Of a stretch of DNA of 64,000 bases, positions 47,001 through 63,534 are shown one piece after another. The notes below the pieces were generated by a model. The model was not told the DNA's origin. It ran no database searches and worked only from the letters and a program-made list of their open reading frames with translations. Each line of letters begins with the position of its first letter. The stretch's first letter is position 1. A program made the position numbers and the translations under genes. Source of the stretch: Leucoraja erinacea (Eukaryota); NCBI RefSeq assembly GCF_028641065.1, contig NC_073377.1, forward strand, positions 155,620,001 through 155,684,000, in the 5' to 3' direction.

Positions 47001-47149
47001 ACCGTTGGTTCCAGAAGAATGTAAGAAATTAGTGTCGCCTCCACAACCATTGGCAGCAGAGTGCTCGCATCTGTGTAGAAATGGACTTTGCACGCCTACA
47101 GGAATATGCTGCTGTGATCCAGGCTGGGATGGAGAATTCTGCAGAGAGG
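47001..47149 (+). CDS. HHIP: HHIP exon with EGF-like repeat 1 (human exon 12 equivalent): PLVPEECKKLVSPPQPLAAECSHLCRNGLCTPTGICCCDPGWDGEFCRE
   Basis: Acceptor taaaccag|A, donor G|gtaggt; 149 bp, phase 2 to 1. Matches human PLMPEECRATVQPAQTLTSECSRLCRNGYCTPTGKCCCSPGWEGDFCRT. Confidence 0.96.
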
Positions 47150-54939: not shown

Positions 54940-55091
54940 CGAAGTGCGACCCAGTTTGTCAGCATGGTGGTGTGTGCGTGCGACCAAATAAATGCTTGTG
55001 TAAGGAGAGCTACACTGGACCACAGTGCGAACAAGTGGATAGAAACATTGAAAGAGTGGCAAGAGCAGGTATTATTCAACTGGCAGATTAA
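54940..55091 (+). CDS. HHIP: HHIP exon with EGF-like repeat 2 (human terminal exon 13 equivalent): (A)KCDPVCQHGGVCVRPNKCLCKESYTGPQCEQVDRNIERVARA. It then either splices after 55068 or reads through GIIQLAD to TAA (55089-55091)
   Basis: Acceptor ttttaacag|CG, phase 1. Matches human AKCEPACRHGGVCVRPNKCLCKKGYLGPQCEQVDRNIRRVTRAG. Internal donor GCAG|gtatta at 55068/55069. Confidence 0.95.
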
Positions 55092-55105
55092 TGTATATAT
55101 ATATA

Positions 55106-55571
55106 CACCAGACTGATTCCTGGGATGTCAGGACTGTCTTATGAAGAAAGACTGGATAGACTTGGTTTATACTCTCTAGAATTCCAGAGATTGAGAGGGG
55201 ATCTTATAGAAACTTACAACATTCTTAAGGGGTTGGACAGGCTAGATGCAGGAAGATTGCTCCCGATGTTGGGGAAGTCCAGGACAAGGGGTCACAGCTT
55301 AAGGATAAGGAGGAAATCCTTTAAAACTGAGATGAGAAGAACTTTTTTCACACAGAGAGTGGTGAATCTCTGGAACTCTCTGCCACAGAAGGTAGTCAAG
55401 GCCAGTTCATTGGCTATATTTAAGAGGGAGTTAGATGTGGCTAAGGGGATCAGAGGGTATGGAGAGAAGGCAGGTACGGGATACTGAGTTGGATGATCAG
55501 CCATGATCATATTGAATGGCGGTGCAGGCTCGAAGGGCCGAATGGCCTACTCCTGCACCTAATTTCTATGT

Positions 55572-55577
<6 letters not shown>
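55106..55577 (+). mobile_element. CR1/HER1-like LINE 3' end inserted into a (TA)n tract just after the HHIP EGF2 exon
   Basis: SGLSYEERLDRLGLYSLEF..; flanked by (TA)n on both sides. Confidence 0.92.
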
Positions 55578-55610
<33 letters not shown>

Positions 55611-57080
55611 GAATAATAATGTACTAACTTGCTTTAGTAGTTAATGAGACTTTTGCAAAATATTTTTAAAATTACCTATTTCACAGATTGAGTAACAGTA
55701 GTAAACACAAGGAACTATAGATGCTAGAATCTTGTGTGGACCACAAAGTCCTGTAGTAACTGAGGTCAGGCCCCAACTTCAGTTTGAACATGGGTCCTGA
55801 CCCGTAACTTTCCGCAGAGACCGCTCCCTCCATAACTCCCTGGTCAATTCGTCCCTTCCCACCCGAACCACCTCCTCTCTGGGTATCCTGCAGTGAGCGA
55901 CTCCCTCTTCATATGCCAAAGCCTTTCCACCATCCCAGGGTAGGAGAATCAGGAACCATAGGACATACGTTTAAGATAAGGGTGGGAAGATGTAATAAGA
56001 TCCTGAAGGGCAACTTTTTTACACAAAGGATGGTAGCTATTTGGAACGAGCTGACAGATGAAGTAGACACAAAATGCTGGAGAAACTCAGCGGCTGAGGC
56101 AGCGTCTATGGAGAGAAGGAATTGGCGATGTTTCAGGTCGAGACCCTTCTTCAGACCTTCAGAGGAAGTAGTTGAGGCAGGTACTGTCACAACGTTTGAA
56201 AAATATTTGGACAGGTAAATGGATAGGATAGGTTTAGAGGGATATGGGCCAAACTAAAGCAGGTGAGACTATTGTAGATTGTGTATGTTGGTTGGCATGG
56301 GCAAGTTGGGCCAAAGGGCCTGTTTCCACGGTGATTGACTGCGACAATAATTCTCTACGACCATTCAAAGGTTACAAGGCAGGAGTGTGCTGGAACATTT
56401 GCATTTGCCTGGATGCATATTGATTCAGTAATTGTCAAGCTTGACTGGTACCCCTGTCCATCATCCTAAATATTCATTCCTCCCAGTGTGCCAGTTCACA
56501 GCAAGTATGGTATGCAGCAAATACCAAAGGCATGAATGTTACTCGCTCTTCCAACTGCACCTCCCAAACTGCACAGTCTACCTCCCAGAAAGCTGAGATT
56601 CCAGTTGCATTGGAACGCTGCCCCGTGTAGATTCCTCTTCAAGTTATACACCATCCATAATTGAAAGTATGTTGCCATTTTATTCTCACCACCAATCTCG
56701 CCCATTCCCAACAGCACGGTGAGGGCAATTTCATGAAAAACACTGCATTGGTAGAAGGCAACAGCTCACACCCCCAATGCCCATTTGGCACGGTCAATAT
56801 ACGCTGACCTTGCCCACAAAACCTTCATCCGGCCAAATTACAATCTACTGCCACAATTCTTCAAACAAGAACAGTTCAGTTTCCTTGCTTACCTATTGTA
56901 ATGCATCAGAGTAGACATCGCTTTGTCTTGGAGATGTATTTATTCTAACTAGCATTATTTGTTTCATTTGTTTATTTACATTGAATACAATAAATTAGTT
57001 CCATTAGAGTGTTGTTAAATGATTAATCTCAAAGTTAGCAAAAGGAAAATGCTGCAGATGCCAGAAATTTGAAATGAATA

Positions 57081-57299
57081 NNNNNNNNNNNNNNNNNNNN
57101 NNNNNNNNNNNNNNNNNNNNNNNNNNNNNNNNNNNNNNNNNNNNNNNNNNNNNNNNNNNNNNNNNNNNNNNNNNNNNNNNNNNNNNNNNNNNNNNNNNNN
57201 NNNNNNNNNNNNNNNNNNNNNNNNNNNNNNNNNNNNNNNNNNNNNNNNNNNNNNNNNNNNNNNNNNNNNNNNNNNNNNNNNNNNNNNNNNNNNNNNNNN
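57081..57299. other. Assembly gap (219 N)
   Basis: Run of N in the intron between the HHIP EGF2 exon and the Kunitz exon. Confidence 1.
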
Positions 57300-57304
57300 A
57301 CACT

Positions 57305-57358
57305 CATACATACGTACGTACATATGTACATACATACATACATACATACATACATACA

Positions 57359-57388
<30 letters not shown>
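57305..57388. repeat. (TACA)n microsatellite beside the gap
   Basis: Direct reading. Confidence 0.95.
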
Positions 57389-57390
<2 letters not shown>

Positions 57391-57644
57391 AATGCTTTAA
57401 ATAGCTGGCTAGACAGACACTACCTACAGAGGACATCCTTAATGTTTCAGACCAACAAATTTTCATCTGAATATTTCGTAGTTGAACCATTGTAGAGGAA
57501 GCCAGGAATGATAAGCACTTTGGATTGCATTCAATTCTATGAAAAGTACTACACAAATAAAAGTTATTATATATTCAAAAAAAATGCAATCAGAATCTAT
57601 CACCGTAAATAATTACAGTAATAATTCGGGCCCGATCCCCGAAC

Positions 57645-58796
57645 TACCTCCGCTACATCGACGACTGCGTTGGTGCTCCTCCTGCACCCACACACAACTC
57701 ACTGACTTCATCCATTTCACCACTGATTTCCATCCGACACTCTAATACACCTGGACCATTTCCAACATTTCCCTACCATTTCTTGACCTCACTATCTCCA
57801 TCGCAGGTGATAGACTACTGACCGACATCCACTATAAACCCACTGACTCCCATGGCTATCTGGACTACACTTCTTCCCACCCTGCTTCCTGTAAGGACTC
57901 CATCCCCTACTCCCAATTCCTCCGTCTACGCCGCATCTGCACCCAGGATGAAGTGTTCCACACCAGGGCATCGGAGATGTCCTCATTCTTCAGGGAACGG
58001 GGGTTCCCCTCTTCTACTATAGATGAGGCTCTCACCAGGGTCTCTTCTATACCCCATGACTTTGCTCTCACTCCCCATCCCCCCACTCGTTACAAGGGCA
58101 GAGTCCCCCTTGTCCTCACCTTCCACCCTACCAGCCGTCATGTACAACAAATAATCCTCCGACATTTTCGCCACCTCCAACGTGATCCCACCACTTGCCA
58201 CATCTTCCCATCTCCTCCCCCGTCTGCTTTCCGCAGAGACCGCTCCCTCCGTTACTCCCTGGTCAATTCTTCCCTTCCTACCCGAACCCACCCCCTCCCC
58301 GGGCACTTTCCCTTGCAACCCCAGGAAATGCTACACTTGTCACTTTACCTCCCCCCTTGACTCTATTCAAGGACCCAAGCAGTCTTGGCAGAGGTTCACC
58401 TGCACCTCCTCCAACCTCATCTATTGCATCCGCTGTTCTAAATGTCAGCTGCTCTACATCGGTGAGACCAAGCGTAGGCTTGGCGATCGCTTCGCCCAAC
58501 AATTCTGCTCGGTTCGCAATAACCAACCTGATCTCCTGGTGGCTCAGCACTTCAACTCCCCCTCCCATTCCAAATCCGACCTTTCTGCCTTGGGCCTCCT
58601 CCATGGCCAGAGTGAGGACCATCATAAATTGGAGGAGCAGAACCTCATATTTCGCTTGGGTAGTTTACACCTCAGCGGTATGAACATTGACTTCTCCAAT
58701 TTCAGGTAGTTCCTACTTTCTCCTCCCTTCTCAGCTCTCCCTCATCCCACTGGCTCCGCCTCGTCCTTTCTTCTTTCCGCCCCCCCCCACACCCCC

Positions 58797-58828
<32 letters not shown>

Positions 58829-58955
58829 ACATCAGAAGGGTCTCGACCCGAAACGTTGCTTCTTTCCTTCGCTCCATAGATGCTGCCTCACCCGCTGAGT
58901 TTCTCCAGCATTTTTGTCTACCTTCGATTTCCCAGCATCTGCAGTTCCTTCTTAA
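57645..58955 (+). mobile_element. Penelope-like retroelement 3' portion (RT thumb, GIY-YIG endonuclease, pseudo-LTR)
   Basis: YKPTDSHGYLDYTSSHP..SIPYSQFLRLRRIC; NLIYCIRCSKCQLLYIGETKRRLGDRF..HF..EQNLIFRLGSL..GMNID. Terminal segment gggtctcgacccgaaacg..gatgctgcctcacccgctgagtttctccagcatttt. Confidence 0.9.
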
Positions 58956-59059
58956 ACATCAAATAATTCTGTCATTTCATTCATCTAATAATTTGGATTT
59001 CTAAAACAATTCATTTGGCTTTTTATTCAGAATGATTTTTTCATTGTATTCTTCCACAG

Positions 59060-59268
59060 CAGTTTGCCAGCAGCCCCGGAAGATTGGGAAGTGCCACACC
59101 CCGACATGGCGCTGGTTCTTCATTGTGGACACCAGGCAGTGTGAACAGTTTGTTTTTAGTGGTTGCCAAGGAAACAAAAATCGATTCAACACTCAAGAGG
59201 AGTGCGAGAAAACCTGCTTACCAGGAAACTATCAAGGCACAGAACTGATGCAGAGGATGGATATATAA
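59060..59268 (+). CDS. BPTI/Kunitz-type protease-inhibitor domain exon, putative extra terminal exon of HHIP: AVCQQPRKIGKCHTPTWRWFFIVDTRQCEQFVFSGCQGNKNRFNTQEECEKTCLPGNYQGTELMQRMDI*
   Basis: Exact Kunitz spacing C-x8-C-x15-C-x7-C-x12-C-x3-C plus the FxFSGCxGNxNRFxTxEEC signature. Pyrimidine-rich acceptor tcattgtattcttccacag| in phase 1, matching the HHIP donor at 55068. No signal peptide. Stop TAA at 59266-59268. The Kunitz identity is firm; the link to HHIP is inferred. Confidence 0.88.
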
Positions 59269-59900
59269 ACTCTTGACCACCCATCTTTTAGTTTCTTCCA
59301 TAATGACAGAAAAATCAAATACATTTCATACTTTTGATGTATATTTTACATGGGACTAAAAGATTTTAACATTCAGAAATGGGGAAAACAGGTTACTTCA
59401 GGTTTTTATTATCTAACCTTAAATTTATTTTAAAATAATGTGTAATATCTGAAGTGAAATTTTAGAAACAGTGACATCTGAAACAAAAATGGTCAAACTG
59501 TATAAGCTCATAACTGGTCGGCCATCGCCAGATTCTAATTGGTGTACGTAGATTTAAAACAAAGACATTTAAATGTATAATTTCTTTTTAAAATTTAATA
59601 TATTGTTTATGTAAATGCATGCTTAATGTCCTCAAGAATACAGTATTATACTGTGACCATTGAGCTGATAAATTGTATTTTTAAACATTATCTGTTACAT
59701 ACTGTATTGCATCTGTTATTATACTATATGTAAGCTGCAGCAGATATGCTAAAGTATATTTTTATTACAGTAGCTACAAAAGTAATTGACCACTGGTAGT
59801 TCTCCTAAACTTCTACAGGCTCTCTTTGTGGGCCCATATCTTAATGATCATTAAACTGTAACCTGTAAATTTTAGCGACGAAACCATTGATGTCAAATAC
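59269..59900 (+). other. Putative 3' UTR of the Kunitz-containing terminal exon
   Basis: AT-rich, repeat-free sequence after the stop; ATTAAA variant polyadenylation signal at 59850-59855. The end point is uncertain. Confidence 0.4.
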
Positions 59901-60518
59901 CATGTTTGTCAAGGACTAATTATCATCAAGTCTTTAAATGTTCGGAGGTGAGATCTCATAATGCTGCTGGAAAGATCAAATGCCGAGAAATTGTGTGTCA
60001 CTTTTTTTTGTTGTTGCTCTATACATGCATTGCATATGGCATTAACGCTCACTCAGATCTCCAGAAAATGTTTCTTAAAGCAGTGCAATGAGTTTTGCAC
60101 ACAGAATCACGCACTAGAACAGGATTTTATCAGAAGCTAAATATGGAGTTCGTAAACCTCTCTGCTGTTTACGCGTTGACCACTCGGAAGTGAGGTGTTG
60201 CTTTCAAGTCAAGTCAATTTTATTTCTATAGCACATTTAAAAACAACTCTCGTTGACCAAAGTGCTTTACATCAGCACAGGTACATTGTGAACCCTTCCC
60301 CCAACAGCCGCCAAAAACGCCACCAAAAACACTGCTGTGGAGGTGAGGCAAAACACAGGTCGCTAAACATTCTTGTTAAATTGGGCATCCGGTAGTTAAT
60401 GGTCTAACCTGGTCTAGACCCATGCTGCCATGAGGTGCAGGCTAGGCTAAGCTTGCAGCTCAGAACCGATTTGAATAAAGAGCCTGTGGTCCATTGAATC
60501 ATTGCCCATAATGCTGAT

Positions 60519-61158: not shown

Positions 61159-62494
61159 ATGCTGATCATTGGAAACTGAGGCTGGCAGATATTTTGTGCT
61201 ATTAGTTGAGCTTTTTTTTTTTCATTTCCATATCTATGTATTCCTTGGATTTTCTGTGAGCAGTCAGTCAAGGTCTTTGATCCCACCAAGAGTTTCCATT
61301 TACACCAGAAGTGGAACAAATGCATTTGCATAACCTCTGGTATCATTAAATACAGGCCGTCGCTGGACAAATGTCAATCCCACTGAGGTGAACAGTGCAC
61401 AGAACTCCCCAAAGCAAATTCCCATGGGGGTGGAATGTCATCCAAAAATGATCACTAAACCAAGTTAACCAAAAGAAGCAGCATTTGTGCATAGAATGAG
61501 AAATAATAGATCCAGTATCTAGGCAAGGAATTGCTTTCTCCCAACCCTTATCCATTTATACGCAGCAAACCCCCAGCATTTTCACATAAATAAAAGGATA
61601 TCCTGCTAAGAAATATTTTCCTTTCCCTTGTATTAATTTAATTGACAGATCCACTTTGCCAGACTTGTATTCATGCAATATTCCATCCTAATTAACAGTT
61701 TGTTTTGGACTTTACCTTGTATATTCAGCACGTAAATACAGCAATTTAACTGTGAACTTGAGTACAGAATATGAGAAAAACTGAGTTAATATGTGGTTTG
61801 GTGAGGCATTGCTGCAAATAGTTATGCAAAGTATTATTAAATGTTTTGTGTAAAAATTGCTTCTTTATATCATCACTTCATAATCATGAGATTTCATTTG
61901 GTCCTGTTAAATGTATCAATTCCGAGCACGTAAGTGGAAACAATTGACAAGAAACTGGGAAAAAAAAAAGTAGATTAGTATTGAGTTCAAAATTGCTTCT
62001 CTTGAAATACTTGGTAATAAGTCTAACAATAACCATTCAAAGTGACGGTAATAACCAGAACTGTATGTAACAAGTTGCAAGGCACTATTTTCTGGTGCTA
62101 CTAAACCAGGGAAAGAACAAAGATTAACATTTTTGGTTATTTTATTGATGATCGCTGAGACTACACTAAAGTAGGGTCTCGACCCGAAACATCTCTCCAG
62201 AGATGCTGCCTGTCCCGCTGAGTTACTCCAGCATGTTGTGCCTATCTCCATTTCAGGTGTTGGCCAAGTACAATATTTTAAAATGTCACCATAAAACTAA
62301 ATTGAGACGTTTGCATTTTTCTTTATTTTATGAATTGAAAGTAATTTAAATTAAGAAGATTAAAATGAGAATCCATCAAGTGCTGACCTTTTTCTAAAAA
62401 TAACCATTGAGGTATTGTGTCTATGGAATAACAGAGCCTCGTAATATCCCCCCCCCTATTAACCGATCAGTGTAAGCCATGACAATGATAGTGG

Positions 62495-63203
62495 CATTCA
62501 ATAAAAATGAATTCAATTCAGAGTATTGGTGATTTCAGCAGCATTTTTCACTGCACATGTTGTAGTGTTTCTGGTGTGCAGCCCCAAATTCCAAACGTGG
62601 AACGGATATAATTGCAGCAAATGCAACGCACTTTGTGAATGATACTATTGACTGAACTCAATGTTCCAATGTTTGGACCAATGTTAATCATTAATGGAAA
62701 ATGATTGCAAGTGGAATGAAAAATGGACCGCCTTGTGCGATACAGCAACAGGTAAACTAATGAATTAGTTACATTCAATAAAAATGAATTGGAAGAGAGT
62801 ATTGGTGATGCAGCAGCCACATTTCAGTTGCAAAAAAATACTAGTGTTTTCTGGTGTTGCAGCCCCAAATTGAAACGTGCAACTTTCAGGAAGGCCTCGG
62901 GGCAGCAAATTCAACGCACTTTGTGAATGATACTATTGACTGAACTCAATGTTCCAATGTTTGGACCAATGTTAATCATTAATGGAAAATGATTGCAAAG
63001 TGGAATGAAAAATGGACCGCCTTGTGCGATACAGCAACAGGTAAACTAATTTAATTTAAGTTACATTCCTAAAGGGCTGAATTGGAGGATCTTAACCAAG
63101 TAGCACCAGCCACATTTCAGTTGAAAAAAATACTCAGTGTTTTCTTAATTGTTGCTTTGAGACACCAAGCTGAAACCTGCAACTTTCAGGAAGGCCTCGG
63201 GGT
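62495..63203. repeat. About 290-bp imperfect tandem duplication (about 2.4 units)
   Basis: The block gcagcaaat..gatacagcaacaggtaaactaat occurs at about 62614-62761 and about 62903-63050, nearly identical. Confidence 0.85.
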
Positions 63204-63534
63204 TGGCCATTTCTTCCTCAAAAAAGGAATGGCCAACAATTTCCTCTCAACCAATGCCCCTCCTCTATCTGACAGAACTTGCCGTCAACCTTTCTTCTGA
63301 TTCCTCTAACTTTCTTCAAGTTAAAGGTGTAGCCCTTTGCTTTTGCCTGGGTCCCAGTTATGCTTAACTTTTTGTTATCTACATTAACCTCTATTGAGGG
63401 AGTGCAGCATAGGTTCACGAGGTTAAATCCCACCCTGTCTCGTACAAGGATGTCATCCCTTCTCATTGTTTCTCCGTCTCCATCGCATTTGAGATGTTAC
63501 AAAAATGTTGAATACCCCCCTCCCATCCCCTAAC

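Follow-up and report, generated by a model that had tools for sequence, protein, structure and literature searches.

The window, by which we mean the whole 64,000-nucleotide stretch of DNA analysed here (Leucoraja erinacea NC_073377.1:155620001-155684000), contains the 3' exons only of HHIP (Table 1). The skate protein is composed of a CRD, a propeller and two EGF repeats and takes a tree position apart from HHIPL1/2. Its C-terminal residues, as read from the window, are identical to those of the little skate RefSeq model P0140, which ends in QRMDI. The exon encoding the second EGF repeat (EGF2) has HHIP as its top PDB matches (E 1e-14), and every named protein that matches it is HHIP, save one 'hypothetical'. 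The letters at its 3' junction are AGA (55062-64), GCA (55065-67) and G (55068) / GT ATT ATT CAA CTG GCA GAT TAA, with the stop at 55089-91; this is the sequence that an earlier, sequence-only reading had given for 55060-55091. Translation of the EGF2 exon together with the unspliced intron start yields ...RVARAGIIQLAD*.

A Kunitz exon is located about 4 kb downstream of the EGF2 exon. It encodes a complete domain, in frame whichever CAG of the tandem acceptor is cut, and matches PF00014 with an E value of 2e-19 and 69.9 bits, against a curated cut-off of 21, over profile positions 1-52 of 53 and with the six-Cys pattern. The first cut of the tandem acceptor is the one used in contigs, and both forms are annotated in relatives. 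A spliced contig extends into the 3' UTR as far as 60257, and more pieces reach about 60500.

Table 1. Features at the 3' end of HHIP in the skate window, and the loci of a separate Kunitz cluster
Feature	Position	Strand	Remarks
HHIP exon, EGF1	47001..47149	+	phase-1 donor after 47149; its end corresponds to loose contig ends before 54940
HHIP exon, EGF2 and linker ending RVARA	54940..55068	+	129 nt, phase 1 at both ends
Main splice donor CAG/GTATTA	55066..55074	+	cut after 55068; within the Gly codon at which the helix of bony vertebrates starts
Second donor (GC), AGA/GCAG	55062..55068	+	putative; cut after 55064, 4 nt upstream; from frameshifted isoform models
Intron start, GIIQLAD* if unspliced	55069..55091	+	translation; contigs matched here never enter
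Multi-copy repeat	55106..55604	+	starts 15 bases past the read-through stop; overlapped by as many as 12 matches from other parts of the window
Tandem acceptor CAG CAG	59057..59062	+	both cuts in frame (RAAVC or RAVC)
Terminal Kunitz exon, coding part	59060..59268	+	six Cys 59065-59217; stop 59266-68
3' UTR of the Kunitz exon	59269..60500	+	ATTAAA 59850, AATAAA 60474; extent from contigs
Kunitz loci of the separate cluster	L003, L007, L011, L012, L014-L016, L019-L021, L026, L029, L031	both	105.9-106.2 Mb

Two further observations concern the surroundings of the junction. Before it, at 55053-55064, stands R-V-A-R, a motif kept in tetrapods and most sharks, which fits a minimal proprotein-convertase motif. 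Furin release at RxxR is unsupported: the motif is absent in Chiloscyllium and Hemiscyllium (GVAR) and in ray-finned fish among the models listed, and cleavage is not needed for HHIP secretion according to PMC4460154. Downstream of HHIP, at about 62480-63230, a segment of about 290 bases is repeated in tandem, with two copies almost complete and a third partial, as judged by eye.

Splicing at the 3' end of skate HHIP

We compared 8 of 24 candidate sequencing runs with the locus. Since the runs carry no RNA label in their records, their RNA origin is shown by spliced joints. In contigs from three runs (X6, X5 and X2, with three organism codes and from three studies) the end of the EGF1 exon is followed by 54940-55068 and then by the exon at 59060, so that the joint from 55068 to 59060 is present in all three RNA-type runs, in X6 at a depth of 187. 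Additionally, a single 3238-base contig of run X1 contains both the EGF1 exon and the Kunitz exon, and the gap between them fits the 129-nt EGF2 exon. Raw reads of another run, X24, have zero depth over unique HHIP exons. The GT at 55069 is a used donor and no chance dinucleotide: past 55068 the unmatched contig ends carry the first letters of the exon at 59060. In skate HHIP the final EGF exon is thus joined by a cut after 55068 to a terminal Kunitz exon, and the Kunitz isoform that the sequence-only reading had suspected is real.

The same reading had also proposed a short isoform, and a functional one ending in GIIQLAD could be made in the skate by polyadenylation within the intron. In favour of such a form, the main donor departs from the consensus at positions +4 to +6, and a genomic run from a related genome (X23) is identical over 55065-55104, that is, over 40 bases in one close relative. 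Contigs entering the intron after 55068 are found in none of the three RNA-type runs, the deeply covered one included; contigs drop rare variants, and the absence of a read-through form is therefore not proven by this count. Against the short form there is also the position of the first AATAAA past the donor, at 56989, which is 1.9 kb after the read-through stop and behind repeats. No batoid RAG read-through model occurs among the models listed, and the peptide is not the same in Callorhinchus or, provided that its model represents read-through, in Heptranchias. We consider a functional GIIQLAD isoform very improbable, and its existence in the skate is unsupported.

A second donor, of the GC type, is suggested by models whose tails are frameshifted; these come from sharks, rays, lizards and a snake. 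Cutting the window sequence at 55064 reproduces the annotated frameshifted tail, and three relatives carry a G at 55064. Forms with this cut, 4 nt upstream of the main one, account for 16 chondrichthyan and 3 squamate models among those listed, and the cut was not seen in the contigs matched to the exon. The cut may reflect genuine tandem splicing, or else an annotation artefact that recurs among the models.

Endings of HHIP among chordates

We made a census of HHIP tails in gene models, which are redundant and do not represent independent events; lineage labels were set by hand from names. Nine rows were left out: two multi-Kunitz invertebrate proteins, five of the nephronectin/EGF type, one distant member of the GSDH family and one 52-residue fragment. 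The 62 chondrichthyan models listed comprise 38 with an in-frame Kunitz tail, one Kunitz form that skips EGF2, 16 with the shifted donor and seven with read-through-like RAG tails (six Callorhinchus, one Heptranchias); none of the 62 has the helix tail. The in-frame Kunitz tail is found in 19 named species among the models listed, a chimaera included (P0146), and 39 of 52 residues of the Kunitz core are identical between the skate and Callorhinchus. In a Heterodontus model (P0045) the EGF2 exon is skipped and EGF1 is joined in frame to Kunitz.

A query with the canonical helix tail found no exon in the window, where a run of N in the intron is unreadable, yet the contigs join 55068 directly to 59060. 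In the whole skate genome the same query returned only the read-through of the EGF2 exon (E 0.55). Tail queries of the window and the genome thus gave no separate exon for the tail, within the intron or outside it, and the skate lacks the canonical tail, as had been proposed. What had been taken for a trait of one species is common to all chondrichthyans sampled. RefSeq models already show the Kunitz ending, and what is new therefore lies in the interpretation. No title on a Kunitz ending of HHIP was found in the literature at the level of titles and abstract openings, where subscription papers are poorly covered, and the available portion of PMC6071037 makes no mention of HHIP.

In mammalian HHIP the tail is a 22-residue amphipathic stretch, A679-V700 (PMC4460154), and in PMC8660895 the helix is defined as 671-700. 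The human tail had been given correctly by the sequence-only reading, in that it ends the tetrapod and coelacanth proteins compared. The same reading had placed the donor exactly at the start of the helix; on the 22-residue definition it is within one residue of it, in the next codon (Gly), and on the 671-700 definition it is about ten residues inside. Of the Gly-Ile start that had been aligned with GT-ATT, Gly is forced by G/GT and Ile needs just AT next. Helix tails open with Gly in 191 of 204 cases, with Gly-Ile in 175 of 204 and with Ser in 13 of 204.

The 253 bony-vertebrate models listed are divided into 205 with the helix, 28 that are tail-less and 20 without the EGF2 motif, and a Kunitz tail is present in none of the 253. 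All 28 tail-less models listed diverge at the Gly codon or 4 nt before it, and none elsewhere: 16 change at the Gly codon, three squamate models use the cut 4 nt upstream, and nine stop or change immediately after RAG, a pattern that agrees with donor use and is not diagnostic of it. The tails that change at the Gly codon read RADIT* in five mammals (a marsupial and four placental mammals) and two snakes, and RADII* or longer in lizards; others are from salamanders and flatfish. The RADIT* models and one lizard RADII* model are P0044, P0183, P0229, P0231, P0232, P0330, P0334 and P0173; their conserved alternative ending comes close to the engineered deltaC22 construct. By our reading of the peptides, the paired tails of snakes and lizards fit two reading frames of a single exon, as in the skate. 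Because every tail-less model leaves the canonical sequence at or near this codon, the position of the donor looks conserved across jawed vertebrates at the protein level, which supports the sequence-only reading.

One fish genomic locus (L001, from 218 candidate stretches) has the helix contiguous with the EGF2 exon, in agreement with the earlier suggestion of a tail formed by read-through. It is the sole bony-vertebrate genomic locus found, and it carries Ser at the position of the Gly codon and no GT. Two fish models (P0055 and P0061, one of them from Alosa) have a longer diverged tail with the first half of the helix pattern only. We also searched the downstream exons of lizards, salamanders and flatfish for a Kunitz remnant; none of 15 tails scored above shuffles (in the best case 64 of 300 were as good).

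All ten lamprey and hagfish models with EGF2 among those listed end in RAG followed by hydrophobic residues and are Kunitz-free. After RAG, a short hydrophobic motif is common to lamprey and hagfish (P0120, P0128); it differs from the helix of bony vertebrates and is possibly a separate read-through tail. Apart from their forced Gly these tails are unlike the helix, and many controls scored as well as they did (193 and 143 of 216). Since the Gly is forced by G/GT and the rest is unlike the helix, we dropped the cyclostome RAG tail as proof of an ancestral helix.

A query with HHIP free of EGF and Kunitz parts recovered a single Kunitz-bearing protein among 147 new representatives, XP_019621383 of the lancelet Branchiostoma belcheri, which consists of a CRD, a propeller, two EGF repeats and one C-terminal Kunitz domain. 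It grouped with vertebrate HHIP at 100/100 when EGF and Kunitz columns were excluded (midpoint root, 24 rows). HHIP is called vertebrate-specific in PMC8660895. The lancelet protein is one predicted model, in a cluster of 1, without about 120 propeller residues, and lancelet gene models are described as error-prone in PMC4967905. The same lancelet model (P0341) has a long charged insert between the CRD and the propeller.

Comparison of the Kunitz domains themselves gave mixed results. Trp at BPTI position 19 occurs in the lancelet and in 8 of 15 distinct shark cores, against none of 56 other Kunitz domains. The lancelet and shark domains are not best matches of each other, ranking 8 of 43 skate Kunitz matches in one comparison and 19 of 58 in another. 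In a tree of 51 columns they come together in 0 of 200 bootstrap trees, a single clade of the two is not rejected (p-AU 0.25), and one branch of 32 is starred; the shark HHIP domain is placed, with weak support (85/84), among other skate Kunitz domains. The loop is Lys-Ala in the lancelet versus Asn/His-Thr-Pro in sharks. Elsewhere, a dense cluster of Kunitz exons with near-duplicate copies on both strands is located at G000:C2:105.9-106.2 Mb (Table 1), together with one more match that has an internal stop. A search of the atlas gave a single match at 0.76, a lead only.

Origin of the Kunitz and helix endings

We think it probable that the Kunitz ending is ancestral in chordates and that the bony-vertebrate helix came later from read-through intron, the Kunitz exon having been lost. 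The combination of an ancestral Kunitz exon and a read-through helix is favoured because lancelet HHIP also ends in EGF-EGF-Kunitz, and shared ancestry most easily explains why both orthologues have one Kunitz domain at this terminus. Of the two directions left by the sequence-only reading, exonisation of the intron after Kunitz loss is therefore the one favoured by the lancelet protein, and it is not proven. On the strength of that one model, Kunitz would have come first and would have been lost twice, in jawless fish and in bony vertebrates; two losses are needed because all ten cyclostome models are Kunitz-free. In bony vertebrates, loss of the Kunitz exon would have been followed by read-through of the donor into the intron, giving rise to the helix. 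Gene models suggest that the same donor would still be active there, joining Kunitz-free exons (RADIT* in mammals and snakes) and producing a natural helix-less HHIP. The fuller account, with a Kunitz domain of inhibitor type in lancelets that turned non-canonical in sharks, a near-invariant surface-binding helix that came from the initial 66 bases of the intron, and the old donor serving in mammals and reptiles as a switch to a conserved HHIP that has no helix and is released more freely (RADIT), is a proposal to which we give slightly less than even odds. Several points count against an ancestral Kunitz domain: the lancelet model is single and gapped, the Kunitz domains are neither best matches nor grouped, two losses are required and the bony-vertebrate tails scored yielded no Kunitz relic. 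To these are added the weak likeness of the skate read-through to the helix, the lack of GT in the sole bony-vertebrate locus, and the redundancy of the model counts.

The main alternative is that early chondrichthyans captured the Kunitz domain from another gene through a cryptic donor in the Gly codon of an old read-through tail, which then decayed; the lancelet domain would be an independent gain or a fused model. The Kunitz-free cyclostome endings in RAG and hydrophobic residues would fit such a capture, as would the separate placement of the lancelet and shark domains, the grouping of the latter with other skate Kunitz domains, weak as it is, and the different loops. Kunitz modules and their like, when mobile, typically have a phase-1 acceptor, and so has the Kunitz exon. 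However, the orthologue must then have received a single Kunitz domain at this end twice over, and even a mis-fused lancelet model requires a Kunitz exon just downstream of lancelet HHIP. The Trp19 common to lancelet and shark, and the cyclostome tails that are unlike the helix past their Gly, also argue against capture, which we regard as unlikely. It is also conceivable that both endings coexisted in the ancestor of jawed or of all vertebrates, with splicing giving Kunitz and read-through a hydrophobic helix, and that bony vertebrates kept the helix while cartilaginous fish kept Kunitz, GIIQLAD being a decayed helix. If one gap is allowed, the skate read-through can be aligned with the helix at Gln and Asp, a weak likeness that was equalled by 10 of 216 controls over 6 codons, 8 of 216 over 19 and 1 of 216 over 11, the 11-codon window having been picked post hoc and spanning a TA microsatellite. 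The hydrophobic RAG tails, alike in lamprey and hagfish, would agree with this coexistence, and the bony-vertebrate models are an example of splicing and read-through at one donor side by side. No likeness to the helix is seen, however, in the read-through of Callorhinchus (105 of 216 controls as good) or in the RAG form of Heptranchias (193 of 216), and the helix is missing from every chondrichthyan model listed. We find this coexistence distinctly improbable and retain the ancestral Kunitz ending as the preferred reading.

Predicted function and related systems

HHIP has been described as the one secreted Hedgehog antagonist (PMC8660895), and its cell retention or release has been tied to the C-terminal helix (PMC4460154). 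Removal of A679-V700 in a mouse construct (deltaC22) releases HHIP from COS-7 cells, and heparan sulfate binding also retains the protein (PMC4460154). Multimerisation, one of the roles that the sequence-only reading gave for the helix, is only predicted, in the form of a zipper-type assembly (PMC8660895). By orthology, shark HHIP would bind Hedgehog via its propeller as in mammals. Since removal of the tail releases the mammalian protein, shark HHIP would be without helix-based surface retention, relying on glycosaminoglycan binding.

Canonical Kunitz inhibitors have a basic or large hydrophobic P1 residue and a small P1'. The shark HHIP loop has P1 Asn in 15 cases and His in 3, and its P2' residue is Pro in 18 of 18, against none of 56 other Kunitz domains; by these residues the loop departs from the canonical inhibitor pattern. 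Because P1 Asn/His and the invariant P2' Pro are unlike trypsin-type inhibitors and differ from the lancelet Lys-Ala loop, a binding role is likelier than inhibition, and the domain is most likely a binding or matrix module and not a trypsin-type inhibitor. If the helix is an exonised intron, it would plainly exemplify how a functional element under strong conservation can derive from non-coding sequence, here on the bony-vertebrate stem. Skates and sharks, which are Hedgehog models for fin and gill-arch patterning, would then also use a differently built antagonist. In amniotes the annotated RADIT isoform would be a natural way to release HHIP, and one that can be tested.

Mammalian HHIP (HHIP1) has, like the skate protein, a CRD, a six-bladed propeller and two EGF repeats, and the linker is conserved to R-A. 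The two differ in that the skate protein ends in a 69-residue Kunitz exon and the mammalian one in the 22-residue amphipathic helix A679-V700 (PMC4460154). The engineered proteins HHIP1-deltaC22 and HHIP-deltaHx are cut at or near the same junction as the skate donor; unlike them, shark HHIP swaps the helix for a folded domain. The amniote isoforms RADIT* and RADII* would be natural equivalents of these constructs, made with this donor. Branchiostoma belcheri XP_019621383 resembles skate HHIP in its CRD-propeller-EGF-EGF-Kunitz order and is sister to vertebrate HHIP; it differs in its canonical Lys-Ala loop, in a linker that is 12 residues longer and in a model without part of the propeller.

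The matrix protein collagen VI alpha-3 also carries a single C-terminal six-Cys Kunitz domain, C5, which is not known to inhibit proteases and is among the best single-domain PDB matches of the skate domain (1knt, E 1e-12). Unlike C5, shark HHIP has P1 Asn/His and an invariant P2' Pro, and the Kunitz tree ties it to no single Kunitz gene. Composite terminal exons, in which a 5' splice site is read through and the protein gains a new C-terminus, provide a parallel for the junction itself. In the skate contigs the read-through form is absent from all three runs, contigs being prone to drop rare forms, and in the fish locus L001 the tail is contiguous with the upstream exon. As in such exons, one donor in HHIP leads to a spliced or a read-through ending; unlike in the usual case, the read-through product of HHIP appears to be the canonical, near-invariant tail of a whole lineage.
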